Positions 1,209-23,626 of a stretch of 64,000 bases of DNA are shown here, piece after piece. The stretch is taken from contig CAZYBS010000001.1 of NCBI GenBank assembly GCA_964645245.1, forward strand, positions 526-64,525. The letters run 5' to 3'. This DNA comes from an uncultured Candidatus Saccharibacteria bacterium. GTDB taxonomy: Bacteria > Patescibacteriota > Minisyncoccia > Phycocordibacterales > UBA9973. The notes beneath the pieces are model-generated. The model made no database searches, was not told the DNA's origin, and was given only the letters and a program-made list of their open reading frames with translations. A program made the position numbers and the translations under genes. Position 1 is the stretch's first letter; each line of letters begins with the position of its first letter.

Positions 1209-1790
1209 CTAGCCCTTTTTTAAGGCTTGTGTGGATAACTCCTTAACCTCTAAAAGAACCTCATGTGGGTAATCAAGGATATCTCGGACAAGTTTATCAT
1301 ACATATTGAGCCTATAAATAAACTCTTTTGTGTCAAAAATAGCATAAACAAGCTCTGCACCAATTTCGGCCTCAAGCCTGCGAATCCCCTTTTCAATCTT
1401 GCCTCGCTTCATTTTATCCCCGACAATCAATAAATCCACTCGGCTATCATCCTTTTTAATAAAGATGCCAGAAACTACAACAAGCTTTACCCGCCCAACT
1501 TTTTTAAAATTGTCTAAAATAGTCTGTTTATTCAAACTATCAGACCTTACCAAAAGATCTTCAAATTTTTCCGCATATTTAAAAAAAGAATTAAAAAACC
1601 AATCCAAAGCACGCCTTTTAATAAAATTAACGGAAGAAAGCAACCTGAGTTCCCGACGAACGATAAGAGGACTGACCCGGCTGCGCTTGACAATATCCTT
1701 ATTCTTGAAACCCTTACCTTTATTGAGTAGGAATAGCCTCATTATTTTTACTCTGGCTCCATTGCCCAGTATTTTTCCCAAAATTTCCAT
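1209..1790 (-). CDS. hypothetical protein, possible N-terminal winged-helix
   Basis: 193-aa ORF, basic N-terminus (KNKDIVKRSRVSPLIVRRELRLL); no recognisable catalytic motif. Confidence 0.4.
   Translation of the reverse strand: MEILGKILGNGARVKIMRLFLLNKGKGFKNKDIVKRSRVSPLIVRRELRLLSSVNFIKRRALDWFFNSFFKYAEKFEDLLVRSDSLNKQTILDNFKKVGRVKLVVVSGIFIKKDDSRVDLLIVGDKMKRGKIEKGIRRLEAEIGAELVYAIFDTKEFIYRLNMYDKLVRDILDYPHEVLLEVKELSTQALKKG
1230..1241 (-). promoter_or_regulatory. GAGTTATCCACA (DnaA-box-like) upstream element, 28 nt before TATAAT (promoter of 409-1104)
   Basis: minus-strand reading gagttatccacacaagccttaaaaaagggctaggatttgatataat. Confidence 0.45.
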
Positions 1791-1822
1791 ATATGTGTAT
1801 TATAATGATTTTTCAAGAAAAA

Positions 1823-3544
1823 TCAATGCTGGTAAAAACCCCTGGCTTCCGAGTCGGGAAGCATTATTAAATTCACGCCTTTTGTCCTGCAAAGCTCTAT
1901 TATTTTCTCATCATTGACTGAACCGCTGGTGGAAAAAATCGTTTTTATTCCACGACCGATGAGCACTTCCGGCGCGTCCGGAAAAGGAAAGAAGCTGTCG
2001 CTGTATGCGACAGCTTCTTTCAAATCCGCTATAGTTTCGGATTTAGGAGCTAAGCTCCCAAAAGGGAGCTTAGCTCCTAAATCGTTAGCAAATGCTGCCG
2101 CCTCATCGGCACGGAAAATAGCCAGCTTGGCCGCCCCGACGCGGTCTTGCTGTCCAACACCGTTGCCATAAAGTCTGCCGCCTTTGACTAAAGTAATAGT
2201 ATTGCTATTTGAGGTTGAGCCGATAGCCCAAGCAAGCACTGCGTCCTTGCTCTCAATCGCCGGCACAAAAGTATAATTGGGCTGTTCCATAAAGCCGCCC
2301 CGGACATAACGGAACCTTCTGGCATTATCTAAGGCAGACAATCCTGCTTTTAAAATGCCGCGGTTTGCTAAAAGCCGACATTTGCCTCCTTTACGAGAGA
2401 GAATTTGTTTTGCTTCTTCCGAGAATGACGGCGCGGCAACAACATCAAGCAGCCGTCTATTCGTTCCGGCATATTTGTGTATCAATTCTTCGGCTATTTT
2501 TTCATCAACATTAAAATTAAGCATTACCGAGCCGCCGAAAATTGCGCGCAGATCTCCCAATAGCATTTTGCCAATGGCATCGAGCCCTGACTCTCCTGTG
2601 CCTGCTCCGCAGGCATTGCCGTGCTTTGCCCCAATGGCAACACTTGACACTTCGCCGAAATTTTTTTCAAATCCAGCGCCAATGTGCGTCATCGTCTGCA
2701 TCATTCTGTCCAAATCGCAAATATTATTATAGGAAAGAGGGCTTCCGGCAACCAGAGCCCAATTATGAATCGCAAGCTTATCTTCACTAGCTGGGTCTTG
2801 CCTAGCTAGTTTGTACAAACTGGCAGGTTTTTGATAGGCATTTTCGCCGTATAATAAGGATTCTAAATTCCCGCCCGAACGACTAACGTCATCCAGTCGG
2901 GCGGGCTTCTTCCCAAAAATTCCTTTGTATTCGCCTTTACCATGATATTCACCTGAGACAGAGCAATATCTCGCAATTAATATCTCTGCTTTAGCAGCCA
3001 AATCATTTAAAAATTCTTCGCGATTGGGCTCGCCATTTTTGAGCCACTTAAGTACTGCTGCTCTATCAGAAGGTTCGCAAATTGTGATACGTCGCCCCTT
3101 CGCGCTTGAACGAATTAAAGCCACTCCACCCATATCCGTTTTTTCCAGTACCCCTTTCCTTCCTCCCCCTACGTAGGGGGAGGTGCCAGGGGCGGAGGGG
3201 GCATATTTTGCAATTTCTTCTTCGAGCGGGTACAGATCTACGCACACCAAATCAATCCAAGGAATGTCATATTTTTCAAGTTCAGCCAAGTGCTCGGGTG
3301 TGTCTAAGGCCAAAAGTCCGCCGTGAATCTTTGGATGAAGAGTCACAACACGATGACCTAAAATAGCGGGAAATCCGGTAATATCTGCCACATCGGTAAC
3401 GCTTACTCCAGCATCAGATAAATGCTTGGCCGTACCGCCGGAAGAAATGATTTTCCAGCCTAAATTTGCCAAACTTTGAGCAAAGTCCGCGATACCCGTT
3501 TTGTCATATACAGAAATTAGCGCTATTTTCTGTCTTTGTTCCAT
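1823..3544 (-). CDS. purH: bifunctional AICAR transformylase / IMP cyclohydrolase PurH
   Basis: MGS-like N-terminal domain (ALISVYDKTG...GGTAK) followed by AICARFT domain; 573 aa, lengthened by two in-frame palindromic insertions. Confidence 0.9.
   Translation of the reverse strand: MEQRQKIALISVYDKTGIADFAQSLANLGWKIISSGGTAKHLSDAGVSVTDVADITGFPAILGHRVVTLHPKIHGGLLALDTPEHLAELEKYDIPWIDLVCVDLYPLEEEIAKYAPSAPGTSPYVGGGRKGVLEKTDMGGVALIRSSAKGRRITICEPSDRAAVLKWLKNGEPNREEFLNDLAAKAEILIARYCSVSGEYHGKGEYKGIFGKKPARLDDVSRSGGNLESLLYGENAYQKPASLYKLARQDPASEDKLAIHNWALVAGSPLSYNNICDLDRMMQTMTHIGAGFEKNFGEVSSVAIGAKHGNACGAGTGESGLDAIGKMLLGDLRAIFGGSVMLNFNVDEKIAEELIHKYAGTNRRLLDVVAAPSFSEEAKQILSRKGGKCRLLANRGILKAGLSALDNARRFRYVRGGFMEQPNYTFVPAIESKDAVLAWAIGSTSNSNTITLVKGGRLYGNGVGQQDRVGAAKLAIFRADEAAAFANDLGAKLPFGSLAPKSETIADLKEAVAYSDSFFPFPDAPEVLIGRGIKTIFSTSGSVNDEKIIELCRTKGVNLIMLPDSEARGFYQH
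2870..2905. repeat. family-2 palindrome (variant loop) in-frame in purH
   Basis: cccgcccgaacgactaacgtcatccagtcgggcggg. Confidence 0.75.
3151..3202. repeat. family-1 GC palindrome inserted in-frame in purH
   Basis: cctccccctacgtagggggagg plus flanking G/C runs; encodes KYAPSAPGTSPYVGGGRKG absent from canonical PurH. Confidence 0.75.
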
Positions 3545-3550
3545 ATTGAA

Positions 3551-3925
3551 TTACTTTAATTCCACTTTCCCTCCGGCTGTTTCAATTTTTTTCTTAAGTT
3601 CTTCAGCTTCGGCTTTCTTCATTCCCGCTTTTAAGGTTCCCGGAGCGGCATCAACCAAATCTTTGGCATCCTTCAGTCCGAGACCCAAGACTTCTTTTAC
3701 GATTTTCATCACCGCAATTTTCTGTTCACCGGCAGATGCCAGAACGGCAGTAAAAGTATTTTGCTCCTCCTTTGCCTCGCTCGCCTCGCTGTCGCTTTGG
3801 CGAAGCGGGCCGGAGCCTTGAGCAGACACTCCAAACTTTTCCTCCAATGCCCTGACAAGCTCATGTAAGTCCAATACGGACATAGTTTCTATTTTTTCTA
3901 TAAGGTCTTTAAATTTTTCTGACAT
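3551..3925 (-). CDS. rplL: 50S ribosomal protein L7/L12
   Basis: 124 aa, conserved C-terminal domain KIAVMKIVKEVLGLGLKDAKDLVD...GGKVELK. Confidence 0.9.
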   Translation of the reverse strand: MSEKFKDLIEKIETMSVLDLHELVRALEEKFGVSAQGSGPLRQSDSEASEAKEEQNTFTAVLASAGEQKIAVMKIVKEVLGLGLKDAKDLVDAAPGTLKAGMKKAEAEELKKKIETAGGKVELK

Positions 3926-3936
3926 AATTCTAATTA

Positions 3937-4419
3937 TTAGTTTTTAATTTTTGCTATTTCATTCAACACAATAGCAAGGCGCTGTATTGGAGAATTAACA
4001 AGATTCACGAACTGCGCGTATAGAATTTCCCGACTTGGAATCATTGCCAGCTCCATCATCTTTTCTTTGCCAATAAATTTCCCCTCAAAAATTCCACCCA
4101 AAATATTCAGGACTCCTTTGTGAGTTTTTTGGAAATTATAGACTCCGCGCGGTGAGGCAATAGCATCTTTCGAGTACGCAATGGCAACCTCGCCGGCAAG
4201 TTCTGGAATTTCACCTTCCGCTTTTCCTTTCAACGCACGGGCCAGAAGTGTTTTTCTAGAAACTTTATAGCTCACCCCTTTCTTTCGGAGATCTCGACGC
4301 AGTATCGTCTCGTCGCTTACTTTCAGGCCATGAAAATTTACGAAGACGAGAGACTCGCTTTCTTGTATTGCTCCTTCGAGATCCCTTATCATTTCTTCTT
4401 TTTTTGATTTTTGTAACAT
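3937..4419 (-). CDS. rplJ: 50S ribosomal protein L10
   Basis: 160 aa, L10 fold, immediately upstream of rplL. Confidence 0.9.
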   Translation of the reverse strand: MLQKSKKEEMIRDLEGAIQESESLVFVNFHGLKVSDETILRRDLRKKGVSYKVSRKTLLARALKGKAEGEIPELAGEVAIAYSKDAIASPRGVYNFQKTHKGVLNILGGIFEGKFIGKEKMMELAMIPSREILYAQFVNLVNSPIQRLAIVLNEIAKIKN

Positions 4420-4700
4420 GATATTTTGAAACTAAAAAACGGCTCGCGCCGTCAAAGATATCGACCCACTAAACAGGACTTATTTTACCCGCCATAGCTT
4501 TAGCGACGGAGGGTTGTGCCTATCTTCTTTGCGGTAAATTCACTATAGCACAGACATTTTACTTTGCAACTGTATTATTTAGCGCATCTTTCTGCTCATT
4601 TCCTTGGTCAAAATGACTCACCAAAAAAACTCCAACGAGGCCCAAGACTATCATTCCGGTAAAAATAATCAGAGTCTTAAAAAAGTGTTTGGTCACAATT
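4420..4700 (-). promoter_or_regulatory. rplJ 5' leader (putative L10 autoregulatory leader) with extended -10 (tgatataat) near 4700
   Basis: ~275-nt untranslated, GC-richer structured region between a TGnTATAAT-like box and the rplJ start; typical position of the L10 leader. Confidence 0.4.
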
Positions 4701-4724
4701 TAATTATATCATAAACCTTGCAGT

Positions 4725-4916: not shown

Positions 4917-4944
4917 ATGTTAATTATAGCATATTGGGAATCAT

Positions 4945-6975: not shown

Positions 6976-6979
6976 TACT

Positions 6980-8120: not shown

Positions 8121-8123
8121 TTT

Positions 8124-8650: not shown

Positions 8651-8880
8651 TTACTTCGCCATAGCGTTCATCAAAGCTTTTGTTTTCTTGCCGATCAGGC
8701 CGTCAGCTTTCAGGCCATTGTCCTTTTGCCATTGCTTGATAACAGCAATGGTCTTGGGACCGAGTTTGCCATCCAGGACTAGACCCAGATTCAAGACTTT
8801 GTTCAAGAATCTTTGCAGCTCCTTGACCGGTTCACCTTTGCTGCCGCTCTTCAGAGTGACGGTGCCGAAATTGTAGGGTG
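8651..8880 (-). repeat. peptidoglycan-binding-domain 3' cassette, copy 1 (end of giant gene)
   Basis: ~230 bp ~93% identical to 15744-15970. Confidence 0.8.
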
Positions 8881-11800
8881 TAGCTGGAGTAGCCGGCGTT
8901 GCAGAGCTTACTCCCGGAACTGCCGGGGTAGCCGGTGTTGCAGGAGCGGCCGTACTTACAATATTCCCTACACAGGACTTACCTGTAACTGTGCTGAAAC
9001 CAGTGGTTCTATTGCCACAGCCAGTAATTGCTGTTGGGGTAGTCGCAGTTGTGGTAGGAGTGGTGGTCGTAGTAGTAGAAGGAGTACTTGAACTGCTGGA
9101 GCTGCTGCTCGAGGTACTGGCTGCGGGAGAATAAGATGCTCCTGAAGAAGCCGCAGCGCTGGCAATAAATGTTGGAACGGCTGAAGACGCGCTGCTTGCG
9201 GCCGATTCATCTCCAGTCGAATTTAGCGCGCTGATTTTAAAGTAATAAGTCGTCCCGGAAGTCAAGCCCGTTGCTTGAAAACCCACTGAAGTAGACGAAC
9301 CAGCTAGAGGGAAACTGCTATTATCGGTGGATTGGTAAATATTATAACTGGCAGCGTTGGCTACGGCTGTCCAGCTGAGACCAACAATAGTTCCGCTATT
9401 AGGCTGGATAGAGAGCGTCAGACCAGTTGGTGTGGCTGGAGGAGTTCCGCCGGACGCAACCATTGGGGCAAAGTCGGACAAGTGAGAAACTGTGGCGGTC
9501 AGAGTATTAAGAGTTGTGTCCACGGTGGTTGACAAGGTGTCGTAAGTTTGGTTCGCATCATTCCACACACCAATCACTAGCGATGCTTCACTCGTGCCGG
9601 CGGGCAAATCACCTTCGGTATATGGAATGGTGATTGTAATTTCGTCATTCAAGCTGGAAATCGGCGAGCCGTCAGAACCTACCGCGTCAATTGATACCGC
9701 GTTCTTAGAAAGGATAGCGCCGCTTGGCGGATTAGGCATAGCCGTATTAACCCTAGTCGTGACCGTTGCGGCATTAGAGCCCGTGCCCAATGCGTTGGCC
9801 GGAATTTCCATTTGGAAGAAATTGCCAATGTCAGTGTTGGTTAGGAATCCTCCAGATGCGGGAGTAACAGTTTCCGGACGTTCCGCTTTAATGGTAAAGC
9901 CGGAAATCGCGGTCAAGGCAAGGTTTTGGCCTGAAGGACTATTGTTGCTGACCGTGACCGGTAAAGGACCGCCTTCGTAGCCGTGGCTATGAGCTCTTAT
10001 CGTCCAGGTGCCATTATCCACGTTGAGGGTATAAGCGCCCGCGGCATTAGTCTGGGCTACGGCGTAGCCGCCGGCTCCATCGGTAGCGTCAACAAAGGCA
10101 TTAGACACGCCGCTGGCATCAATGGTAATCGTACCAGTAATGGTTCTGGCAGCAGTAGTTAAGGCGATAGTGCTTACGGCAACGGTTGCGTTTGTCACCG
10201 TAGCGGTGCTTTCGGCCGGAGATTTGTATCCCGGCTTGTCGGCCCGAACTTTATACACTCCCGGCGGAACACTAATACTGAATGTTCCATTGGAAGCGGT
10301 TTGTCCGCCTAAGAAGATAGTGTTGGTTTGTCCAGTTGGAGTTCCGTTCAAAGACACCCAAGCGCCAGATAAAGCCGATCCATCTCCGTTCACTGTTCCA
10401 GTTACCGCATATAGTACTCCAGCCGATGCCGTGTAGGTAATCGTGCGCGTGGTATTAACCCCGGTGGTTGTTCCGACACTGCCATAGGCCGGATGCCCTG
10501 CCCGGACAGTATACGTTCCCGGTGGAACAACCACGGTATAAACCGCGTTGGCGCCGGAAGTGGTTGAGGTTGAAGTAAAGTTACCGCGGCCATTGGAATC
10601 ACGAACTTCCACTCCGGCATTGGCAATGGCATTGGTGCCATCAGTGATATTAATCGTAATGGTGATAGGCGCCGCTTGGGTGCAATTTTTTCCGGAAGTA
10701 GTAGTGTTAGCCGTCACCGCAATACCGGTTACCGGCGTGCCTTCTCCGACTCCCGGGAAATAACAAACAAGCGAATAAGTTCCAGCTGGAACCCTTAAGC
10801 TGTAAGTGCCGTCAGAGCCAGTTGTGGTCATATTGCCGCTAGAGCCCGTAGAATCCTCCGCCCGCACCATCACGCCCTGCACGGCAACAGTTGCCTGCGT
10901 GGCAGTACCGGTAATGGTCCCCATAGATAAACTTTGCGCGGAGAAATCCTGACCGCTGGAACTGCTGGTGGTAATCGTAATAGTTTTGGTTCCCAAGCGT
11001 CCAAAGCCGGGAGCAAAAGCTTCCACGACCCAAGTGCCGGCCGAGACATACAGAGTGTAGGCGCCGTTAGCGTCAGTCGGACCACCGACAAAGTTTCCGC
11101 TATCGCCTCCAACGGCTGTGGTATTGGAAGTGGAAACGACTTTGCGTCCGGAAACACCAGCGTAAGAGATGGCATTGCCTGAATCGTCTTTAATCGTTCC
11201 GGTAATAGTCAAAGTGGTTGCGGCATCAAGCACGAAGGCGAGAGTGGTTGGAGTATTGGCAGATGCGCCCACGGTAATTTGTTTTTCTGGAACCGGCGGC
11301 ATGCCCGGTTTAAACACTCCGCAGAGGTAAACTCCCTGGACTGTCTTTAAGGTAAAGGCCCCGGTAGTTCCAGTTTGGCCGCCGGTGCCGAATCCGCCGG
11401 CCGAACCAGTGGTGGATGCGGCTACTGGACGGCAGAAGACACCAGCACCGGAGACTCCGGTACCCGCAGAATCAACTACGGTTCCAGTAATGGTTTTATC
11501 AGCCGTGGATAAAACGAAGGCCAGCGCCGGGACAGTTGAGTTAGAGACACTGACACCTGCCACATTTACCTGAACGCTTGGCGGAGGCATGAAAGAAAAG
11601 TCCGGTGGTGGTGGAGGCGGAGCGCCCGGAGTAAAGGAAGTTTCCGGCATGGCTGGGCCAACTCCAATATTGTAAGAACTATTGGCCAAAACCGGCAGAG
11701 AATAAGCAACGGGAGACCCGGTCATCGTTAAGGTCTTTTTAGTAAAACCATTGGGCGAAGAAGCAAAAATGTCCACTTTCGTAGTATTGGCCCCATTGAT

Positions 11801-14800: not shown

Positions 14801-15514
14801 GGTGACATTGGAAGGAGTGATGGTTGACTGGTCAATATTTTCACTGAAACAAACGTGAACGAATGTAGAAATAGGAACACCGGTTGAAAGATTGGCTGGA
14901 CCGGTGCAGCTGGCGCTCACGGTCGGAACGACTGTATCAATCGTTAAAGCTTGGACTGCGGCAGCTAATAAAGCTGTGCCAAGCGCCGCTCCTCCAGTTC
15001 CCCCTGCGGTAATGGCGTTGGCTGCCATAGTCGCCTTAAAAGCGTGGCCGTTGACTGCTCCAGCAGCGGTGCTGGCTGTCACGATATACCAAGAAGCGGC
15101 TGCGCCTATCGTCTCCCCTGTAACAGTAATGGTAGTTGTGGAGCCGACATTAACCGTTGTTTGTGTTCCCTTGACTGTGTCTCCACCATCTAAAATATTA
15201 TCAGCTGATTTAAAAACTTTAAGATTGGTAAAATCTCCCGTCACGGTCGGACCGGCGGTGCTTTCAATACTGACCACGACTTGTGTGATTGTGTTATCGG
15301 CATTATTTCCGGTTAACTGAAATCGAATAAGAGGGGTATCCGTGCTACTTGCTTTGATTGTCTGGGAAGGGGTTACCACGCCGGCCGGCGCTGTGGTTTC
15401 AGAAACGGCTGCGTAGACAACAGTGTATACCACTACGCTTAATAAAATAAAAACAGCAAAAATTGCTGTTAGTATTGCGACTGGAGAAAACATTTTTCTA
15501 AGAGAAATATTCAT
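8651..15514 (-). CDS. giant cell-surface protein (2287 aa) with Ig-like / carboxypeptidase-regulatory-like / FN3 repeats and C-terminal peptidoglycan-binding (PG_binding_1-like) domain
   Basis: N-terminal signal/TM, Thr/Ala/Gly/Val-rich beta-repeat body, FN3-like segment (GTTYYFKISALN), C-terminal ...LDGKLGPKTIAVIKQWQKDNGLKADGLIGKKT. Confidence 0.7.
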   Translation of the reverse strand: MNISLRKMFSPVAILTAIFAVFILLSVVVYTVVYAAVSETTAPAGVVTPSQTIKASSTDTPLIRFQLTGNNADNTITQVVVSIESTAGPTVTGDFTNLKVFKSADNILDGGDTVKGTQTTVNVGSTTTITVTGETIGAAASWYIVTASTAAGAVNGHAFKATMAANAITAGGTGGAALGTALLAAAVQALTIDTVVPTVSASCTGPANLSTGVPISTFVHVCFSENIDQSTITPSNVTFTSGGTPVGAGIRPFPDGFDVVVSNTPTFADSSRFAKLGSTSTAFYPIAGTNPISPQPPTGYASPTVGDIVIKQHETFPSDVGLITDATLTSGTFAFNGFPLHGSSQVTKVATPTATGAVTAATSVTAGDIIVVNTTTNPTDVKYNWHIVTTGAAVNNTSLRLDGAGAAPAYVSGSKFSTIAPNDTSAVNASSQVVGSVDSGINFVVGDLVFAKVTTNGDNLDSFAWHIVTTAQNITTDIAPTTLRLDGATGGAPTFAASSQVSKITPGAEGAVTAATALSFGDIVMAKTTANAFNNNSYVFHIVTGAAAVNGTALRLDNAPANLTISTTYVTTVTTGVKDSAGNALAANGTVTFTTGSTGGTNTTPPFVQSSQPSPGSQTHPIGAPIKLTFSVDMASSGGGSITDAANIGLFTDVNGAPGIAVTTTKAYDSPSKTVTLTPSSALTAATGYVAKVNITATSATGAVLTAPYFLFFHTPSGAADTTAPTVSGVSPANAATGAALGTVVTAGFSEDMDPSTINANTVTLKKTSNSAAVTGSVTYNPQSRSVSFSPSTALESSSGGGSNGQYTFTIIGGGSDPRVKDLSANALAANYTSAFTTTATADTVKPILTFANADNFSVAVTFSEQMKSGGGPNAADNIANFTLESPVGSSISLGGKTVVYEAGTKTARITGLSLQNGTTETPATFKITVSSVVQDLSSQVMDVTGTPALNTQFGTVANSATSGGLIGPGGGTIDMSMQGMNPSRVMPMSRGAGATSNYHVEFLAGTSIPATGQIVLTFPAGFTLTAADKVAVALSFCNADLNGPATGAPVIDTVVANNDAGTITITTTAAAATGANSFICMDLSGIVNSTVPSSSGYTVTMQTKNTSANNRATLQTITAAPFFLGAAGSRTLTVNVFKDANTNGTNDSGEGINSVTVYLFSPATGGQEATTATVSIAGVATFTNLADGDYMVGLKPTAAIDVAFNSMPQSHKITSDAATHTKNFALSNAAALTISGTINGANTTKVDIFASSPNGFTKKTLTMTGSPVAYSLPVLANSSYNIGVGPAMPETSFTPGAPPPPPPDFSFMPPPSVQVNVAGVSVSNSTVPALAFVLSTADKTITGTVVDSAGTGVSGAGVFCRPVAASTTGSAGGFGTGGQTGTTGAFTLKTVQGVYLCGVFKPGMPPVPEKQITVGASANTPTTLAFVLDAATTLTITGTIKDDSGNAISYAGVSGRKVVSTSNTTAVGGDSGNFVGGPTDANGAYTLYVSAGTWVVEAFAPGFGRLGTKTITITTSSSSGQDFSAQSLSMGTITGTATQATVAVQGVMVRAEDSTGSSGNMTTTGSDGTYSLRVPAGTYSLVCYFPGVGEGTPVTGIAVTANTTTSGKNCTQAAPITITINITDGTNAIANAGVEVRDSNGRGNFTSTSTTSGANAVYTVVVPPGTYTVRAGHPAYGSVGTTTGVNTTRTITYTASAGVLYAVTGTVNGDGSALSGAWVSLNGTPTGQTNTIFLGGQTASNGTFSISVPPGVYKVRADKPGYKSPAESTATVTNATVAVSTIALTTAARTITGTITIDASGVSNAFVDATDGAGGYAVAQTNAAGAYTLNVDNGTWTIRAHSHGYEGGPLPVTVSNNSPSGQNLALTAISGFTIKAERPETVTPASGGFLTNTDIGNFFQMEIPANALGTGSNAATVTTRVNTAMPNPPSGAILSKNAVSIDAVGSDGSPISSLNDEITITIPYTEGDLPAGTSEASLVIGVWNDANQTYDTLSTTVDTTLNTLTATVSHLSDFAPMVASGGTPPATPTGLTLSIQPNSGTIVGLSWTAVANAASYNIYQSTDNSSFPLAGSSTSVGFQATGLTSGTTYYFKISALNSTGDESAASSASSAVPTFIASAAASSGASYSPAASTSSSSSSSSSTPSTTTTTTPTTTATTPTAITGCGNRTTGFSTVTGKSCVGNIVSTAAPATPATPAVPGVSSATPATPATPYNFGTVTLKSGSKGEPVKELQRFLNKVLNLGLVLDGKLGPKTIAVIKQWQKDNGLKADGLIGKKTKALMNAMAK

Positions 15515-15615
15515 AAAAATATTTAAGATTAAAAGCTAATAAAAAAGACGACGTTCTTTTTATATATAAAAGTCATTTTTTATTATACCACTAATTTATT
15601 ACACCACACTTAAGA

Positions 15616-15627
15616 TGTGGATAACTC
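15616..15627 (-). promoter_or_regulatory. GAGTTATCCACA upstream element, 28 nt before tggtataat (promoter of giant surface gene)
   Basis: gagttatccacatcttaagtgtggtgtaataaattagtggtataat. Confidence 0.5.
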
Positions 15628-15633: not shown

Positions 15634-15661
15634 AAAAAACCACTCTGAAAAGTGGTTTTTT
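15634..15661 (-). terminator. rho-independent terminator hairpin
   Basis: aaaaaaccactctgaaaagtggtttttt, stem flanked by A/T runs (potentially bidirectional). Confidence 0.6.
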
Positions 15662-15666
15662 GCATT

Positions 15667-15726
15667 CACCTCTCCCCTTCGCCCCTCTCCATAAGAGAGC
15701 TTATGGAGAGGGGTTGGGGTGAGGCT
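15667..15726. repeat. family-1 GC palindrome downstream of 15744-16547 gene
   Basis: cctctccccttcgcccctctccataagagagcttatggagaggggttggggtgagg. Confidence 0.8.
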
Positions 15727-15743
15727 ACTAATTTACAAATTTT

Positions 15744-15970
15744 CTACTTCGCCATCGCATTCATCAGAGCTTTTGTTTTCTTGCCGATCAGGCCATCAGC
15801 TTTCAGGCCATTGTCCTTTTGCCATTTCTTGATGACGGCAATGGTCTTGGGACCAAGTTTACCATCCAGGACTAGACCCAGATTCAAGACTTTGTTCAAG
15901 AATCTTTGCAGTTCCTTGACTGGTTCACCTTTACTGCCGCTCTTCAGAGTAGTGGTGCCGAAGTTGTAGG
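15744..15970 (-). repeat. peptidoglycan-binding-domain 3' cassette, copy 2
   Basis: ~230 bp ~93% identical to 8651-8880. Confidence 0.8.
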
Positions 15971-16547
15971 GACCGGCCGAAACTGGAGAGACAACACCGC
16001 TGACACACAGTGCGCCAGTTGAGGTATTGTATTTATTGCCTCCGGAACAGCCGGGAGAAACCGTCGTCATGGTAACTTCTGGAGAAATGGTCAAGGCGAC
16101 GGGTGTCGTACTCGTCGCTACGGTTGCAGTCGGTGAAGCTGAAGAGGAACCTCCCCCGCCGCCTCCGCCGGAAACTAATCCTCCGCTACCGCCGAAAGTA
16201 CAAGCGGTAGAAGTAGGCGTAAAGATTACCGTCGTTGCTCCGGTAACCAGAACCGAGTTCTGAGAAAGGTTACAAGACTGAGCCAGACCCAAGTTATTCG
16301 TCAAGGTATCTCTAAGCGGAGACACCAAGGTTAAGGTACTGGAAGCCGGCACCGTCACGGTCAGCGTCGTCGCGCCGACTTCTATTGTCGTGGCCGCTGA
16401 ATTAGCTGTAATCGTGTAGTCGCGGCTATTAACCGTGACTGTCGTATCAACGCTGAAAGTCAAGTCAGCCGCTTGCGCAACCGAAACGACTCCAACACAG
16501 AGAGACAAGACAGCTATTAACAAACCGATTTTTAATTTTTTAATCAT
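15744..16547 (-). CDS. secreted protein with the same C-terminal peptidoglycan-binding domain
   Basis: signal peptide MIKKLKIGLLIAVLSLCVGVVSVAQA; last ~70 aa ~93% identical at DNA level to the end of the giant gene. Confidence 0.6.
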   Translation of the reverse strand: MIKKLKIGLLIAVLSLCVGVVSVAQAADLTFSVDTTVTVNSRDYTITANSAATTIEVGATTLTVTVPASSTLTLVSPLRDTLTNNLGLAQSCNLSQNSVLVTGATTVIFTPTSTACTFGGSGGLVSGGGGGGGSSSASPTATVATSTTPVALTISPEVTMTTVSPGCSGGNKYNTSTGALCVSGVVSPVSAGPYNFGTTTLKSGSKGEPVKELQRFLNKVLNLGLVLDGKLGPKTIAVIKKWQKDNGLKADGLIGKKTKALMNAMAK

Positions 16548-16641
16548 TTTGTTTTTAAGATTATATATACGGGATTCGACCCAGAGAAAGTTTCAAGAAA
16601 AATCCCGTATATTTATTTGTTGATAATGTACTTAACTTAAG

Positions 16642-16679: not shown

Positions 16680-16690
16680 AAACAAAATAA

Positions 16691-18886
16691 TTATTTGTTG
16701 GTATAAACACTCCAAGTATTTGCAGCTGTGTTCACGAAAGTTAATTCAATATCTGTACCTGAAGCAACTGTTGCAGTTCCAATAATTGTCATACCTGAAG
16801 CTCCAGCAGTAATGGTCAAGGTTTGAGCACCACCGAGGTTAGCAAACACTACTCTGAATGTATCCCCAACTGCGACACCTGGAATAGCAGCAGAAAGAAG
16901 AGTACCAGTAGGGAAAGTAACCGTACCTGCCCCCGTAGCACTTGTTTGAGTTAGAACACCACCTAGAGTCTGAGCTGCTGTTGGAGTAGAGTTTTGAACT
17001 GTACCAAGTGCAGTAGTCGTCGTACTAAACAATGGAACTCTTAATGTGCCTCGTCCAAGGGAAATAAAACCATTAGCACCAGCCGTACCACCATTAGCAC
17101 CACCACCAGCACCTGGAACTAAGGTTACATTTCCACCAGCACCACCAGTACCAGAAGCACCACCTGACAAACCACCAGCACCTGCTGTTAAGCCCAATGC
17201 GCCACCAGCACCAGATGTACCAGCGTTAGTTGAGTTTGCTCCACCAGTACCTGTCGTAATTGATACAGCACCACCAGCACCTGAGCCATTAGTTGCACCC
17301 GTAGCAACACCACCATTTCCAACGGTAACAGTCAATGCGCCACCAGCGCCACCAACAGTAGCTGCAGCTGCAGTAGAACCAACACCTGTTGTAAGAGTAA
17401 TCGCACCACCGGCCGTGCCACCTGTAGAAGCAGTACCACCTGCGCCAGCAGTTATAGCAACAGCTCCACCAGCAGCTAGAGTACCAGCAGCACCTGCTTG
17501 GACTGTAACAGTACCTGGGGTATTTCCTAAGTTAGCAGTTCCAGATTGAACTGTTACATCACCAGAAGCACCACCAGTCGCAACACCTGATCTAAGAGAA
17601 ACCGCACCGGAAGCGCCGGAAGTTGTAGTACCAGAAAGGAAAGCAACAGTTCCGGAAGCGCCGGAAGTTGAACCACCAGCACCAGAAGTAAGAGCAACCG
17701 CGCCACCTGCGCCAGTTACACCACCTGCACCAGCAACACCAGTAACGGCACCACCAGCAGCAGCGACAGAACCAGCACCAGCTGTCAATGTAACAGCACC
17801 ACCAGCCGCACCAGTTGTGGCTGAGCCAACACCTGCAGCACCAGCAGTAAGAGTAATAGCACCAGCGGCACCGGATGTACCGGCACCAGAAGGAGCACCA
17901 GAAGCACCAGCAGTAAGCGAGTATGAACCACCAGCACCGGATGTACCAGTAGTAGTAGTGCCACCAGCGCCGAGAGTAACAGTAGAAGCACCACCGGCGC
18001 CACCTGTACCAGCACCAGAAGCATTACCTCCAGCGCCAGCTGTAAGGGTAGATGCGCCACCGGCGCCACCTGTACCCGTGACAGTAACGCCACCAGCACC
18101 AAGAGTTACGGTAGAAGCACCACCGGCACCACCAGTGTTACCTAATGTAGCCGCACTACCTGCACCCGAAGTTAAAGAGTAAGCACCACCTGCACCTGCA
18201 GAAGCGCCGGCAGTTGTGCCTGCAGCACCAGCAACAAGTGTAATTGCACCACCTGCACCTTGTCCGCCAGTTCCGCCAGCGCCAGCTGTAACAGTAACTG
18301 CGCCACCGGCGCCAGTTCCGGCACCGTTAGCACCCGCGGTAATTGCAACCGTACCCGGAGTGTTAGCGGCAGTCGTTGTACCTGAAGAGAGAGTTACCGC
18401 ACCAGAGACACCGGCTGTGGCATTACCAGAACCTAAAGCAACAGCACCCGAAGCACCGGAAGTAGTCGTGCCTGTAGCGACAGTCAATGCGCCTGAAGCG
18501 CCAGAAGTTGCGCCTCCAGCACCAGTAGTAACAGAAATAGCACCACCGGCACCAGTTGCGCCACCGGCACCAGCCGTCACTGCGCTAGCACCACCAGCCG
18601 CACTACCTTGACCTGCGCCAGCAATTAGAGAAGATGCGCCACCGGCAGAGTTGCCAGCCGTACCTGCACCGGAAGTTAACAAAATAGCACCACCAACACC
18701 CGTAGTTGAACCTCCAGCACCAGCTGTCACAGTGATAGCATCACCGGCTGCTGAAGCAGAACCTTGCGCGCTAGTAACACTTGTTGCGGCAACAGTCAGA
18801 GTTGCGCTAGCCTGACCCGCGCCGACAAATGCGACCAGAGCCAGAGACATCAAAATTAAACCTAAACCTTTAAATAATTTTTTCAT
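16691..18886 (-). CDS. Gly/Ala/Thr-rich highly repetitive secreted protein (putative surface fibril/adhesin)
   Basis: start set at MKKLFKGLGLILMSLALVAFVGAGQASA signal peptide; >600 aa of GAGGxTxGAxGAVTxT degenerate repeats; distinct beta-rich C-terminal domain. Confidence 0.55.
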   Translation of the reverse strand: MKKLFKGLGLILMSLALVAFVGAGQASATLTVAATSVTSAQGSASAAGDAITVTAGAGGSTTGVGGAILLTSGAGTAGNSAGGASSLIAGAGQGSAAGGASAVTAGAGGATGAGGAISVTTGAGGATSGASGALTVATGTTTSGASGAVALGSGNATAGVSGAVTLSSGTTTAANTPGTVAITAGANGAGTGAGGAVTVTAGAGGTGGQGAGGAITLVAGAAGTTAGASAGAGGAYSLTSGAGSAATLGNTGGAGGASTVTLGAGGVTVTGTGGAGGASTLTAGAGGNASGAGTGGAGGASTVTLGAGGTTTTGTSGAGGSYSLTAGASGAPSGAGTSGAAGAITLTAGAAGVGSATTGAAGGAVTLTAGAGSVAAAGGAVTGVAGAGGVTGAGGAVALTSGAGGSTSGASGTVAFLSGTTTSGASGAVSLRSGVATGGASGDVTVQSGTANLGNTPGTVTVQAGAAGTLAAGGAVAITAGAGGTASTGGTAGGAITLTTGVGSTAAAATVGGAGGALTVTVGNGGVATGATNGSGAGGAVSITTGTGGANSTNAGTSGAGGALGLTAGAGGLSGGASGTGGAGGNVTLVPGAGGGANGGTAGANGFISLGRGTLRVPLFSTTTTALGTVQNSTPTAAQTLGGVLTQTSATGAGTVTFPTGTLLSAAIPGVAVGDTFRVVFANLGGAQTLTITAGASGMTIIGTATVASGTDIELTFVNTAANTWSVYTNK

Positions 18887-19085
18887 AATCTTTTTCAGCC
18901 CGAGGCTGATCCGCCTTGGGCGGAAATAATAATTAATAATAATGTCACTAATAATTTTCCTCAATCGCCTAAGAGTGCCCTTAAGGGAATGCACTGTAAG
19001 ACAATTCAAGATGACAAAAGCGTATTCGACTCGCCAATGTGTCCCTAATTATACAATAGGAACAAATATTATGACACAAGGGGGG

Positions 19086-19097
19086 TGTGGATAACCC
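19086..19097 (-). promoter_or_regulatory. GGGTTATCCACA upstream element, ~32 nt before ttgtataat (promoter of Gly-rich surface gene)
   Basis: gggttatccacaccccccttgtgtcataatatttgttcctattgtataat. Confidence 0.45.
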
Positions 19098-19195
19098 GAA
19101 CTAGGGGCTAGTTGCTAGGGACTAGGGGATAGTTTTTATGCCAAATTTGTTTTTACTTTCCTAGAACCTAGAACCTTGTCCCTAGAACCTAACCT
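19094..19195. repeat. CTAG-rich motif cluster (ctaggggctag, ctagggactagggg, cctagaacctagaacc, ccctagaacctaacc)
   Basis: shares ctagaacctag / ctaggggctag words with 23655-23750 and 19765-19785. Confidence 0.45.
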
Positions 19196-19547
19196 ACTTC
19201 TTCGCTGCTAAAGCTTCAGCGATTTTGCTATTGGGAAGTATCGGACCGTAAAATACGACATGTTTCCTATTTAGATATAGGTGTTTGGGCGCCCAAAGAG
19301 CTTCAGTCAGCGGATTAAGCTGGAAATTGCTCTTCTTAGGGTCGGTAGCGTCTGGTGCCGTAGCTAGAATATAGCCATTTTTCAATTCCATCATTGGAAA
19401 TGTAGATAGCTTGCCTATATATACTTCCCCGGTGGAAAGATATACGACAGAAATAGAATTACCTGTATCCCTATATTTGCTCCAAAGAGCAACTCCCACG
19501 ACAACCAAAACCACGATAACTATCAGCGCGATATTTTTTTTAGACAT
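19194..19547 (-). CDS. hypothetical membrane-anchored protein
   Basis: 117-aa ORF with N-terminal TM anchor IALIVIVVLVVVGVALW. Confidence 0.4.
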   Translation of the reverse strand: MSKKNIALIVIVVLVVVGVALWSKYRDTGNSISVVYLSTGEVYIGKLSTFPMMELKNGYILATAPDATDPKKSNFQLNPLTEALWAPKHLYLNRKHVVFYGPILPNSKIAEALAAKK

Positions 19548-19611
19548 AATAAATTCTTTTTTATGTTATTTGTAATAGAGATACTATAGAGGAATTTGAT
19601 ACAAAATACAA

Positions 19612-19682
19612 CCTCACCCTACCCTCTCCAAAGGAGAGGGTAAATCACCCCTCCCTTTTGGGGAGGGGTTGGGGAGAGGTGG
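19612..19682. repeat. family-1 GC palindromes (two adjacent hairpins)
   Basis: ccctctccaaaggagaggg and cccctcccttttggggagggg. Confidence 0.8.
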
Positions 19683-19688
19683 TAAATA

Positions 19689-19719
19689 CAAAAAACCACT
19701 CTGAAAGGAGTGGTTTTTT
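19689..19719 (-). terminator. rho-independent terminator hairpin, near-identical duplicate of the 15634 copy
   Basis: aaaaaaccactctgaaaggagtggtttttt. Confidence 0.6.
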
Positions 19720-19785
19720 GAAGTTTTAGAAGATCGACCCCGCCCAAGGCGGGCAGGCATCTAAAAGCTATTTCTAGAACCTAGG

Positions 19786-19842
19786 CCTCACCCCTCCGCC
19801 CCTCTCCATAACTTAGTTATGGAGAGGAGTTGGGGGAGAGGT
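19786..19842. repeat. family-1 GC palindrome directly downstream of 19842-23348 gene stop
   Basis: cctcacccctccgcccctctccataacttagttatggagaggagttgggggagagg. Confidence 0.8.
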
Positions 19843-22800
19843 TAGCTTGATACGCCAACCGTACCGGTAGGATAGTTGTAGAAGAAGCCAGGAGTTGTGG
19901 TCGTACGGTCAAGGTATCTGTTGGATACGGTCGTAGCCGCGCTTCCGGCGACATCTATACCATTGGTAGTAGCGGCATTTCCAGCCGTGTCAGTCCAGCT
20001 CAAGAGGTCCGCATTACCGGTGCTCAATGTAGCTTGACCGGCTTTGTTCGTACTGGTAACCGCGTCAAACTGCAAGAAAATCTTGAAGGTCTGACTTGTT
20101 CCAGCCGGAATCTGATAACCACCGGTAAAGGTAATGGTTGAAGTACCTCCAGCTGTCGTACTACCCATTGCCGTATTAGTCGTAGTCACCGGATTGCCGT
20201 CCTTGTCTTTAACACGAATACCGTCAGCCGCATAACCAGGGTTAGCATTAGGTAGTGTAGCCGAAGTTAGAATGGCATTAATTGGCAGAGCGTTAAGTGT
20301 GATATCACCCTTGAGATTAGCCGTCACAACCACATTACCAATTTGAACTGACCCAGTAGTAAGTACTTGAGTTGAGGTCGTCAGCGTCATGGTAGGAGCC
20401 GAACCAACCAATTTCATAGTCGGAGCAGCTACTGTAGCCGCGGTCTGAACAGTATCACAAGTTTGGATAGCCGCCGTACAAAGCGTACTGGTCGTATTAC
20501 CGCTGGTGTACTTGATGTACTCCAGAGCGACACGCGCAGTAGCGCCGGTAGAAATACCATTAGTGCCAACTTCGGCGTAGGAAACAAACACCTCCTGGCT
20601 AAGTCCGGAACCGCCGTTTGGAACAGTCAGAGCCAGACCGGTCAAGTAGGAAACACCAGCAACCGGCGCAGCTGACACATTGCCAACCTTAATCGCCGTA
20701 ACCGTTGAAGGAACTAATCTAACCGCTGAAGGAGTACCGGTAGAAGCTACAGCCACATAAACAGTCAGGTTTGGAGCGGAAATTGCGGTAACCGTACCCA
20801 AACCGTTGGTGGTCGCGGCCACTAGCTGAACGACATCACCCACCGCAAACTTAGCCGTATCGGCTGAAGTCGTCAGGGTCAGTGTCTGGGCAGTAGTTGT
20901 GTTTGCATCGGCATCGGTAGAAGCGGCCGAGAAGTCTTGGCTGTTGACAGTGAATTTCATTTCTGAAATTACTGCCGAGCCGCCAGTCGCTTGAATCTTG
21001 AACACTGCCTTGGTAGCATTAGCCGCACCGCCATTGGCCGCCGGAACGAATTGCTGAGAGGTAGATGGAGCGGTCAGCAAGGCAATGTTGTTAGAAACTG
21101 TACCGACAGCCAAAGTAACTGTTTGACCGGTTACCGCTGTCGCATTACCGTTCTGACTAATTGAAACATTGCTGCTTGAACCAATAGAAGTAACAACCAG
21201 CTTGGTCAAAACTGATGCGCTGCCAGCTGTAGCACCCGTATCAGCCAACACATCAATTACTTTGGTTGCTCCAGGTAGAAGCGTAAAGTCAACGGAGAAT
21301 GTGTTGGAAGCCGCCGGCTGAATTGGATTAGCGCCGGAGCCAGTAGTTTCGGAAGTTCTAAGATTGGAGAAGTTGGTCAAGGCCGGGGTGGTAGAAGTTG
21401 ACAGGGCTGTGCCCGCACCATTGAATAAGGTAACAGCCAAACTGGTTACCCGAACAGATTCAGAAGAACTCTGGTTTTGCAGAACGAATGAGCCAACCTT
21501 CACACCGGCGGTGTTCGGATTAGCATTTTGACTGGCATAACCGGTATTCCTGGAAACCGCCAGGACTCCGGTCTGAACAGTCAGGATTGTTCCGGTGACG
21601 GTAGAAGTCGGGAAATTCAAAGTGGCCTTTGAATTCTGACCCTGTCCATTGCTGGAACCGACATTAAGGTTAGCCGAGACCGAACCGGCAGTATAGTTGA
21701 TACTGGTAGAGTTCTGAAGGTCGGCGCGAATTTCAATATAACTGTCCGCACCGGCTGGCAGAATCATTTGTGAACCAAGCTGGAAGGTAAGCGCATCCGT
21801 GCCGTTGTAGGCAGCGCTGGAACCAACCTGTGAACCGTTAAAGTAGATAGTCACATTGTTCAAGTTGGTCGTTGAACCGGAGGCGGTAACACCGCTAGTC
21901 ATGATAGGTTTAACAATAAGATTGCTAACCTTCACATCCTCGCCATATCCATGCACTTTGAATTTACCAATAGCGACGTTGGTCGCGCCGCCAGTAATAT
22001 TCGTCAGCGCTTGGAAAGTAGGGTCAACATTGACCGAAGCCGAACCGGCATTAATTGTTATTTGACCGGCCGTATTGGCAGTAAAGGCAGTGGTAGAACT
22101 AACAGCCGCAGCCAAATTTACTCCAACTTGACCATCGTAGAGAACTAAGTCAGAGGCTTGCTGAACTGAAACTGTAACCGTGTAGCTTGCACCCTTGACA
22201 ATATCTGCGCGCACATCAACCGTGTGCGTACCAGTTGAAAGCTTTAGAGGGCTAGCGGAAAAGTCAAACATTGCGTAGTTGGAGCCGGTAATCGTGCCCA
22301 TCGTAGCGGCACTGCCTACATTGACACCATCAACATAAAGCTTGACATTGCCCAGCGCGTCAACCGGGGCTGAACCAACTGTGCGGAAGTTCGCACCCTT
22401 GAGCCAGACTTCACGTACATTTACTTGTACCGGAGCTGACCAGACTGTGTAGGCGGAGGTCCCGGCATTGACTGATGCGGCCGGAACAGCCACCGAAGCT
22501 TGCGTGGCCAGATAGACACTCGCTAAGTTACCGCTACCGTAAGTCATTGTATTACCGCTTACGTTAGCTGTCACAGCTGTTTGACCAGCGGCGGTAAAGC
22601 TAAGTAGAGTAATGCCCAGAGTGGAAGCATTAGTCACAACAGCCACATCAGCTTTGACCGAAATAGTTCTGGAACCACTGACCGCCAGACCAAGACTATT
22701 CATTGTTAGTTCACCAGTATTGTTGAATGAATAACCGTCGGTCAGACGAGTCGTCCCGTCATATAAGTAGAGATTGGACAAGGTGTTTTGGTCAGAGACA

Positions 22801-23348
22801 CCAGTGCGCTTGAGCATAACTGTATTGACAGTGCCTGCACCACTGAAGGTAAAGTGCGCCAGGTCAGCCGTAGATTGACCGCCGATGATGTATCTGGAAG
22901 CTGGATTGTCTGCCGCAACTGCGACGGTTACTGGACCAGTTTGTGCTACTGGAGTTGTTGCTGCACAAGGAGCGCCGGTATTACTATTGTACATAGCCCC
23001 GCCCTCACAACCTGCAGCTGGAGCAGAAGTCATAGCCGCACCGCCGGACCAAGCAGCGCGTGATTTAGGACCGAAGACTCCGTCAGCCGCCAAGCCTGCA
23101 TCGCTTTGCCAAGCCATGACAGCCGCTTTGGTTTTCGGACCAAATTTACCGTCGGCAGTGGCTCCGACCGCCGTCTGCAGACATTTAACTTGCTCGCCTT
23201 TTGAACCTACTCTCAAGGTGCTAGTGATTGTACAATCAGCCGCAAGAGCTGTAGTCGCGAACGCAAAGGCGAACAAGACGACACCTACGAGCAGAGCCGA
23301 CGCAACCATCGCTCCAAGAAGGAATTTTGATTTTAATATATTACTCAT
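19842..23348 (-). CDS. large cell-surface protein (1168 aa) with N-terminal peptidoglycan-binding-like domain and Ig-like beta repeats
   Basis: signal peptide, then GSKGEQVKCLQTAVGATADGKFGPKTKAAVMAWQSDAGLAADGVFGPKS (PG_binding_1-like), long Thr/Ala/Val/Gly-rich body. Confidence 0.65.
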   Translation of the reverse strand: MSNILKSKFLLGAMVASALLVGVVLFAFAFATTALAADCTITSTLRVGSKGEQVKCLQTAVGATADGKFGPKTKAAVMAWQSDAGLAADGVFGPKSRAAWSGGAAMTSAPAAGCEGGAMYNSNTGAPCAATTPVAQTGPVTVAVAADNPASRYIIGGQSTADLAHFTFSGAGTVNTVMLKRTGVSDQNTLSNLYLYDGTTRLTDGYSFNNTGELTMNSLGLAVSGSRTISVKADVAVVTNASTLGITLLSFTAAGQTAVTANVSGNTMTYGSGNLASVYLATQASVAVPAASVNAGTSAYTVWSAPVQVNVREVWLKGANFRTVGSAPVDALGNVKLYVDGVNVGSAATMGTITGSNYAMFDFSASPLKLSTGTHTVDVRADIVKGASYTVTVSVQQASDLVLYDGQVGVNLAAAVSSTTAFTANTAGQITINAGSASVNVDPTFQALTNITGGATNVAIGKFKVHGYGEDVKVSNLIVKPIMTSGVTASGSTTNLNNVTIYFNGSQVGSSAAYNGTDALTFQLGSQMILPAGADSYIEIRADLQNSTSINYTAGSVSANLNVGSSNGQGQNSKATLNFPTSTVTGTILTVQTGVLAVSRNTGYASQNANPNTAGVKVGSFVLQNQSSSESVRVTSLAVTLFNGAGTALSTSTTPALTNFSNLRTSETTGSGANPIQPAASNTFSVDFTLLPGATKVIDVLADTGATAGSASVLTKLVVTSIGSSSNVSISQNGNATAVTGQTVTLAVGTVSNNIALLTAPSTSQQFVPAANGGAANATKAVFKIQATGGSAVISEMKFTVNSQDFSAASTDADANTTTAQTLTLTTSADTAKFAVGDVVQLVAATTNGLGTVTAISAPNLTVYVAVASTGTPSAVRLVPSTVTAIKVGNVSAAPVAGVSYLTGLALTVPNGGSGLSQEVFVSYAEVGTNGISTGATARVALEYIKYTSGNTTSTLCTAAIQTCDTVQTAATVAAPTMKLVGSAPTMTLTTSTQVLTTGSVQIGNVVVTANLKGDITLNALPINAILTSATLPNANPGYAADGIRVKDKDGNPVTTTNTAMGSTTAGGTSTITFTGGYQIPAGTSQTFKIFLQFDAVTSTNKAGQATLSTGNADLLSWTDTAGNAATTNGIDVAGSAATTVSNRYLDRTTTTPGFFYNYPTGTVGVSS

Positions 23349-23614
23349 AAATTTTTTCTAATTTTTACGCCATTAATTAGTTTCGACTCGCCCCTCACTT
23401 GCACGCAAGTGAGGGACAAAACTAAAAGCGTATTTTTTCTATCGTTATTTTTTACCCGCTAATAATAATGACCTTTTATTCTCCTTCAAGATTTTTTCGA
23501 CGAAATCGTGAACGAAAACAAATTACGATTGGTGAATATAGATTGCACAAAGATGTGCAGTCAACAGACACCATGACATTATAATATACAGCTCCAGGAT
23601 AGAGCAATATACTA

Positions 23615-23626
23615 TGTGGATAACTC
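23615..23626 (-). promoter_or_regulatory. GAGTTATCCACA upstream element, ~30 nt before tattataat (promoter of 19842-23348 surface gene)
   Basis: gagttatccacatagtatattgctctatcctggagctgtatattataat. Confidence 0.45.

Follow-up and report, generated by a model that had tools for sequence, protein, structure and literature searches.

A predicted DnaA-box-like promoter element of envelope genes in a Saccharibacteria contig and across the Patescibacteria

A 64,000-nt window of contig CAZYBS010000001.1 (assembly GCA_964645245.1, positions 526 to 64,525; "the window" below always means this whole stretch), from an uncultured Candidatus Saccharibacteria bacterium, carries four copies of the motif GRGTTATCCACA, each in the same orientation, within a narrow range of distances from a TATAAT box and upstream of a gene for a surface or membrane protein. 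The motif contains the 9-mer TTATCCACA, which is the DnaA R-box consensus (relaxed consensus TTWTNCACA). The same cis-element recurs in genomes of the Candidate Phyla Radiation (CPR, or Patescibacteria), where it keeps a fixed phase and orientation, is under selection at the DNA level and precedes a characteristic set of genes. GRGTTATCCACA is read here as a predicted protein-binding, activator-type cis-element that would define an envelope regulon of the CPR, with DnaA as its most likely binder, and we give this reading a probability of about 0.5. The four copies in the window are predicted members of that CPR envelope promoter set.

The CPR comprise ultra-small, mostly host-attached bacteria that account for a large share of bacterial diversity and whose gene regulation is nearly unexplored. 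In full-text searches of the literature, neither a promoter motif nor a class of promoters with DnaA boxes nor an envelope regulon was found described for the CPR, and a type IV secretion system preprint that mentions dnaA refers to gene neighbourhood only. A superphylum-wide envelope control element of the CPR has apparently not been described so far. DnaA boxes in promoters are already known; new is a single stereotyped box predicted to define a superphylum-wide envelope regulon.

The four sites in the window

Exact TTATCCACA occurs four times in the window, at 1230, 15616, 19086 and 23615, always on the minus strand. A first-pass annotation of this DNA had estimated that about 0.5 copies would be expected by chance, and dinucleotide-preserving shuffles agree, with a mean of 0.45 copies, a maximum of two and no shuffle out of 100 reaching four. 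The common orientation, the extension to GRGTTATCCACA and the TATAAT box 28-32 nt further on, all of which that annotation had described, were recovered at every copy. The 5' ends of the extended form read GAG, GAG, GGG and GAG at sites 1-4, and a window-wide search returned no exact 12-mer beyond these four. By anchored extraction, the gap between the last A of the motif and TATAAT is 28, 28, 32 and 31 nt, with the -10 hexamers at 1196-1201, 15582-15587, 19048-19053 and 23578-23583. The sites, their predicted promoters and the target genes are as follows.

1230-1241, minus strand: motif copy 1, GAGTTATCCACA, overlapping the codons E-L-S-T near the end of the open reading frame (ORF) at 1209-1790
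1196-1223, minus strand: core promoter 1, TTAAAA (1218-1223), 16-nt spacer, extended -10 TGaTATAAT (1196-1204)
409-1104, minus strand: target gene 1, a 231-aa membrane protein with MscS-type transmembrane-helix repeats (Pfam MS_channel_1st_1, E = 2.9e-15)
15616-15627, minus strand: motif copy 2, GAGTTATCCACA, directly behind an intrinsic terminator (hairpin z = -5.1)
15582-15590, minus strand: extended -10 of promoter 2, TGgTATAAT, 28 nt past the motif, with no recognisable -35
8651-15514, minus strand: target gene 2, a 2287-aa surface protein with Big_5, CarboxypepD_reg, SdrD_B and fn3 domains and a C-terminal PG_binding_1
19086-19097, minus strand: motif copy 3, GGGTTATCCACA, located by exact search
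19048-19077, minus strand: core promoter 3, GTGTCA, 18-nt spacer, TATAAT; the -35 begins 8 nt past the motif
16691-18886, minus strand: target gene 3, for a secreted or anchored protein with a signal peptide followed by Gly/Ala/Thr/Ser-rich repeats
23615-23626, minus strand: motif copy 4, GAGTTATCCACA, behind a -51 kcal/mol hairpin
23578-23607, minus strand: core promoter 4, TTGCTC, 18-nt spacer, TATAAT
19842-23348, minus strand: target gene 4, a 1168-aa protein with an N-terminal PG_binding_1
1209-1790, minus strand: gene for a 193-aa winged-helix protein (AlphaFold2 (AF2) pLDDT 75.5), with motif copy 1 inside its 3' end

The candidate -35 hexamers are weak (TTAAAA, GTGTCA and TTGCTC at sites 1, 3 and 4; none at site 2), and extended -10 boxes of the form TGnTATAAT are found at sites 1 and 2. 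A simple consensus scan called sigma-70-like promoters at site 1 (TTAAAA-16-TGaTATAAT), where TTGNTATAAT is kept in orthologs, and at site 3 (GTGTCA-18-TATAAT). Just before site 2, and likewise before site 4 (z = -4.7), lies a strong terminator-like hairpin of the preceding transcription unit; the fold upstream of site 3 was no better than shuffles (z = -1.2). Apart from their -10 boxes, the sequences flanking the four copies are unrelated to one another, and the copies are therefore not a dispersed repeat.

Three of the targets had been described as large cell-surface proteins and the fourth as a membrane channel. The domain matches listed above bear this out, with the qualification that the match of target gene 1 to NCBIfam msc falls below the curated cutoff, but the start assigned to the gene at site 3 had to be moved: it is the ATG at 18886, not the TTG at 19009, and the protein consists of about 700 aa of Gly/Ala/Thr/Ser-rich repeats behind the signal peptide. 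Database matches of this protein (loci L204-L207) were tried as a second footprint and rejected, with about 17% query coverage and loci of 66-72% GC, two of which adjoin capsid genes; they are probably compositional matches of the Gly/Ala-rich repeats.

Distribution, gene set and constraint in the CPR

A collection holding one genome per species (185,579 species) was scanned with the pattern ATTATA-N24-34-TGTGGATAACYC, the reverse complement of the motif together with TATAAT, which gave at least 120 stretches. Named CPR taxa account for 59 of the 121 matches listed, and unclassified metagenome-assembled genomes for 13 more. Saccharibacteria, Parcubacteria/Paceibacteria, Nomurabacteria, Berkelbacteria, Nealsonbacteria, Campbellbacteria and others are represented among these matches. 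Since the CPR contribute, by our own estimate, only a few percent of the bases in the collection, CPR matches are strongly enriched. The spacing between motif and TATAAT is also particular to them: it is 30-32 nt in 42 of the 59 listed CPR matches (range 28-33; binomial p = 3e-12 under a uniform spread across the 11 allowed lengths, 24-34 nt), whereas the distribution is flat in non-CPR matches, with 30-32 nt in 13 of the 49 listed (Fisher p = 6e-6, CPR vs non-CPR).

Many CPR sequences have a TTGnnn hexamer 7-9 nt past the motif, which gives the architecture RGTTATCCACA, N7-9, TTGnnn, about N17, TATAAT and places the motif at about -44 to -55, in keeping with the activator or UP-element position proposed in the first-pass annotation. 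The CPR loci (425 kb) also contain 17 copies of TTATCCACA outside the search pattern, against about three expected by chance, and roughly nine of these 17 share the architecture, with TAG, AAG or TGG replacing GRG. The conserved core is therefore taken as GTTATCCACA with a purine-rich 5' flank. A same-strand ORF starts within 600 nt downstream of 52 of the 59 CPR sites. At seven CPR sites the motif overlaps an ORF of 100 aa or more on the same strand, and in six of them that ORF ends 15-37 nt after the motif start, as at site 1 of the window. A TATAAT at fixed distance, a TTGnnn between motif and -10 and a same-strand gene downstream together describe a sigma-70-type promoter region, and the predicted promoter element is, on this sequence evidence, a feature of the Patescibacteria as a whole, beyond a single genome.

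The proteins encoded downstream form a coherent set. Pfam searches of 60 of them returned PG_binding_1 in 13, MS_channel_1st_1 in eight, the pilin domain N_methyl in seven and MraZ in three. The controls were 120 first genes that follow an intergenic gap in the same loci and lack an upstream motif; among them FtsK, RecA, EF-P, L10 and T2SSE were the most frequent families. All four envelope families lie outside the 25 most frequent in the 120 controls and hence have at most two members each there; on the assumption of at most two controls per family, Fisher tests of families against controls gave p = 1e-5, 3e-3 and 7e-3. Envelope genes had been proposed as the targets from the window alone, and it is an envelope, pilus and division set, not seen in the controls, that lies downstream in the CPR. 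The four targets of the window exactly match this CPR-wide gene set. No tRNAs were motif targets in the CPR loci.

In the CPR mraZ promoters (L005 1590-1700, L035 1603-1700, L036 4191-4300), GTGGG-N5-GTGGG repeats stand immediately past the -10. Such repeats are the known type of MraZ operator, through which MraZ regulates its own synthesis. They show that the mraZ sites are true promoter regions and that the upstream box is a separate element. The repeats are the same as those of the MraZ operator at the mra (dcw) promoter; they lie downstream of the -10, while the DnaA-box-like motif stands on its upstream side and also occurs at genes that do not belong to the dcw cluster.

The boxes might also be replication-related DnaA sites, either titration reservoirs of the datA kind or remnants of origins, with their nearness to promoters incidental. 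As perfect high-affinity DnaA sites they would suit such a role, and in non-CPR bacteria the same search pattern mostly hits oriC or dnaA regions. The non-CPR matches are indeed mostly ordinary origin or dnaA-promoter regions, a reading based on their 2.4 boxes per locus and on a dnaA gene within 8 kb in 13 of 49 loci. The CPR loci have 1.3 boxes each, and none of 58 carries dnaA. Neither dnaA nor a DnaA-domain-IV-like gene was found in the window or in any CPR locus examined, and secondary one-mismatch boxes within 90 nt upstream of CPR sites show no excess (one against 1.4 expected). An origin is marked by a box cluster near dnaA or dnaN and an AT-rich unwinding element, whereas the CPR sites are solitary, with one box each, and their fixed orientation, 30-32 nt phase and specific gene set would not be expected of titration sites. 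We consider a replication-related role very improbable.

Conservation at one promoter was followed in loci that were picked by alignment of the MscS-like protein alone, from metagenome contigs, and not by the motif. Exact GTTATCCACA is present in 62 of the 73 orthologous promoters with enough upstream sequence and has one mismatch in five more, down to 41-50% protein identity. In 69 ortholog promoter sequences, each of the nine box positions is conserved in 66-69, and every position of the 10-mer, the third positions of the TTA, TCC and ACA codons among them, carries about 2 bits of information. At the MscS-like promoter the motif coincides with the final codons (E/Q-L-S-T) of the gene upstream, while at other promoters it is intergenic. 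Because synonymous positions are invariant inside the motif and nearly free in the flanking codons, the constraint acts on the DNA and not on the protein. The earlier suggestion of a dedicated regulator-binding site or promoter class is strengthened by this selection. The variants among orthologs (TTTTCCACA, CTATCCACA, TTATCCCCA and ATTATCCACA) are compatible with what DnaA tolerates but too few for a tolerance profile.

Chance, coding constraint or a dispersed repeat as the source of the motif can be regarded as refuted. The overlap of copy 1 with the ELST codons of the upstream ORF speaks for coding constraint, but synonymous positions are invariant inside the motif alone and the other copies are intergenic; the shuffles and the unrelated flanks given above stand against chance and repetition.

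Two further features were seen at MscS-like promoters. A GGTCGAA(A/C) box lies 19-30 nt past the -10 (about +12 to +25), at 1169-1175 on the minus strand of the window and in nearly all MscS-like orthologs (L124-L197). It is present in seven of the 59 listed CPR matches, including at least one pilin promoter, against about one expected. Its flanking arms are complementary and clade-specific (AACTTTA..TTAAAAGT vs AAGGTACTT..AAGTACCTT); RNAalifold returned no consensus structure for this leader region, and we propose no RNA motif there. In five loci (L138, L169, L180, L195 and L143), the extended -10 ahead of the MscS-like gene is interrupted by an insertion of about 75-90 nt (TTGTTATA|...|TTGTTATAAT) with an apparent target duplication. 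The insertion has the palindrome TATATGGATTACCATATA and regenerates TATAAT. In four of these loci a near-perfect AAGTTATCCACT box lies within it in reverse orientation, and in the three loci counted 28 nt separate this box from the regenerated TATAAT. The insertion resembles a small mobile element with the MscS-like promoter as its target.

Candidate binders and proposed mechanism

DnaA is the most likely binder of the motif, as judged from sequence, because the motif equals oriC box R4 together with its flanks and because DnaA acts as a transcription factor. This second role is established in E. coli, B. subtilis and Caulobacter, with division genes included in Caulobacter. The 12-mer GAGTTATCCACA occurs once per chromosome in 5400 E. 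coli genomes, beside mioC in the oriC sequence, and this copy is known to be box R4. Compared with oriC boxes R1/R4 (GAGTTATCCACAG), the 9-mer is identical and the 12-mer with its flanks is identical in three of the four window copies. The flanking preference is shared as well: genuine oriC-locus boxes outside the search pattern have A at -2 in 32 of 62 and G at -1 in 32 of 62 (52% each), and the CPR promoter sites have A at -2 in 60 of 69 and G at -1 in 65 of 69. Both the CPR motif and the oriC R-boxes are asymmetric, monomer-sized sites, and the CPR motif is solitary, as expected for a monomeric contact by domain IV. The ortholog variants TTTTCCACA and CTATCCACA presumably lie within the published relaxed DnaA-box consensus. 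The CPR sites differ from oriC in having no nearby dnaA, no cluster and no AT-rich unwinding context, and in carrying one box per promoter in fixed phase and orientation.

Promoters controlled by DnaA include those of dnaA, nrdAB, mioC and polA in E. coli, of dnaA, sda and ywlC in B. subtilis and of gcrA, ftsZ and podJ in Caulobacter. Like the CPR sites, these have boxes in the promoter region, and a box that lies upstream of the -35 tends to go with activation. Caulobacter DnaA links replication initiation to division genes, to which the CPR mraZ promoters (L005, L035, L036) would be a parallel. Known DnaA regulons are small, centred on replication and the cell cycle, variable between species and usually built on several boxes of mixed quality; the CPR set is unlike them in its single perfect box, stereotyped position, envelope and pilus targets and superphylum-wide range. 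CtrA of Caulobacter, which is reported to control pilA and envelope genes (PMC11264516), offers an analogy at the level of function for tying pilus synthesis to the cell cycle: it is a cell-cycle regulator that drives pilin expression from sites at or upstream of the -35. CtrA belongs to another protein family and another phylum and has another motif, TTAA-N7-TTAA.

Several points weigh against the preferred reading, in which DnaA would bind the motif and activate envelope genes. The scan listed at least 121 matches and made TATAAT obligatory, so that the CPR share is a sample and not a census. Well-studied DnaA-regulated promoters usually have several boxes, whereas the CPR sites are solitary. 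Box position 5, which is N in the DnaA consensus, is an invariant C in the orthologs. At site 4 there is a second promoter with a better consensus about 40 nt downstream, TTGACT-18-TATATT (23564-23535). We know of no link between DnaA and an envelope or pilus regulon in model bacteria. Finally, a conserved gene for a putative winged-helix regulator lies directly at one motif site.

This last point leads to a different candidate binder. The motif may be the operator of a CPR-conserved factor other than DnaA, with the 193-aa winged-helix protein (1209-1790) as prime candidate, and we regard this as possible but doubtful. The modelled N-terminal winged helix matches CzrA (ArsR), MarR, IclR and HrcA-type regulators with a Foldseek probability of about 1, although the E-values are weak (0.01-0.07); some homologs carry source names as ArsR-family regulators, and four proteins of the control set, probably homologs too, match Pfam HTH_DeoR. 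The protein, which may be a regulator, is strongly conserved, with 76-100% identity in the best 120 of 2750 homologs, and its gene is syntenic with the MscS-like target gene in many CPR genomes, with the two adjacent at L009, L010, L015, L053 and L055. The functional coherence of the regulon behind the motif would suit a dedicated factor, as would the invariance of every 10-mer position, including one that DnaA reads loosely. However, winged-helix regulators of these families normally bind palindromes or repeats as dimers, and the motif has no dyad or repeat and no second copy nearby. An unrelated factor would also need to coincide with the DnaA box at all nine positions and to share the oriC flank preference, and a perfect R-type box should, given the affinity of DnaA, be occupied by DnaA anyway. 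Sites of the CRP/FNR type and those of WalR, MraZ, LexA and CtsR were rejected on comparison with their consensus sequences because the motif has no dyad or direct repeat; the comparison serves as a lead only.

It is also conceivable, if improbable, that no separate regulator is involved and that the motif is an UP-like element intrinsic to RNA polymerase, read by the C-terminal domain of the alpha subunit (alpha-CTD) or by a sigma extension and marking strong promoters. The location at -44 to -55 is that of an UP element, the motif accompanies weak -35 hexamers and extended -10 boxes, and targets such as pilins and surface-layer-type proteins are typically highly expressed. UP elements are A/T-rich tracts, but GTTATCCACA has three invariant C, and a 10-mer that includes G and C and carries about 2 bits at each position is unlike the minor-groove reading of A/T tracts by alpha-CTD. 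The motif is absent at housekeeping first genes of the same loci (L10, EF-P, RecA, FtsK) and, within the window, ahead of rplJL, and its spacing is too long for sigma region 4. Compared with UP elements and class I sites (CRP at -61.5), the CPR motif shares the location upstream of the -35 and the weak -35 or extended -10; it differs in having no A/T tract, in carrying about 20 bits and in being restricted to one functional gene set.

For the preferred reading, with DnaA as binder, the following mechanism is proposed; we infer from sequence protein binding, DnaA as the protein and activation as the effect. GRGTTATCCACA would lie directly upstream of the -35, at about -44 to -55, in sigma-70-type promoters whose -35 is often weak, and this promoter set would drive the genes for peptidoglycan (PG)-binding giant surface proteins, type IV pilins, the MscS-like membrane protein and the mraZ/division cluster. 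DnaA would bind the single high-affinity R-type box through its C-terminal domain IV. Positioned at about -50, it would contact RNA polymerase, through alpha-CTD or sigma region 4, and recruit or stabilise it, compensating for the weak -35 in the manner of a class-I-type activator. Occupancy of the box would follow the availability of free DnaA, which would tie expression of surface and division genes to the replication cycle.

Patescibacteria have very few transcription factors. In its widest form, for which we see somewhat less than an even chance, the proposal is that DnaA was recruited as master activator of envelope biogenesis in the Patescibacteria, acting from one perfect R-type box at about -50 that has been kept since the radiation of the superphylum. 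If true, expression of pili, of giant surface proteins anchored to PG, of an MscS-like channel and of the mraZ/division operon would all be coupled to the state of replication initiation. The finding thus offers a hypothesis for how tiny cells might coordinate surface synthesis with replication via DnaA, or else a handle on a new global regulator. The rule RGTTATCCACA-N7-9-TTGnnn-N17-TATAAT predicts promoters of those surface, pilus and division genes that presumably underlie life as an epibiont, and it could supply a natural strong or regulated promoter module for the emerging genetic tools of cultivated Saccharibacteria. In CPR genomes, methods that predict origins by counting DnaA boxes will go astray.

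Neighbouring genes and other features of the window

A near-box, TTATCAACA, at 16618-16626 on the minus strand was not counted as a member, being about 50 nt from the nearest TATAAT and not matching the architecture. It lies upstream of a 267-aa PG_binding_1 gene (15744-16547), and a GGTCGAATCC hairpin stands between it and the TATAAT.

Long inverted repeats rich in CTAGG/CCTAG, probably terminators, occupy 19098-19215 and 23627-23745 (minus strand) between genes; the one upstream of site 4 folds at -50.9 kcal/mol (z = -4.65) and the one upstream of site 3 at -31 kcal/mol (z = -1.2). Hairpins of the CCCCTCTCC type occur at 15640-15730 and 19640-19830. A twin hairpin with 5-6-bp arms (TTTCAGCC-N3-GGCTGATCCGCC-N3-GGCGG and an arm-swapped version) is found at 1119-1149 and 18896-18926, the only two copies in the window (0 expected), each 10-15 nt before the ATG of the site-1 or site-3 gene; some orthologs (L134, L157, L172) have the twin hairpin too. 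The window contains no Rfam matches at gathering thresholds and no tRNA genes.

On the opposite strand, ftsK and recA (23737-28380) adjoin site 4. FtsK (6) and RecA (4) are also the commonest families among the motif-less control first genes of the CPR loci, which suggests that giant surface-protein genes stand in conserved synteny with ftsK-recA. At 1823-4419 on the minus strand, the pair rplJ-rplL has an AICARFT/IMPCHase (purH-like) gene directly behind it, with the winged-helix gene next in line; one would not expect an enzyme of purine synthesis in a member of the CPR. An unusual fusion is encoded at 40776-44768 (minus strand), a 1330-aa protein of isoleucyl-tRNA-synthetase type that is interrupted at residues 512-672 by a His_Phos_1 (histidine phosphatase) domain and has an HD domain at its C terminus. 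The gene content of the window, with many aminoacyl-tRNA synthetases, ComEC, type IV pilus ATPase and platform proteins and giant surface proteins, fits the CPR/Patescibacteria.

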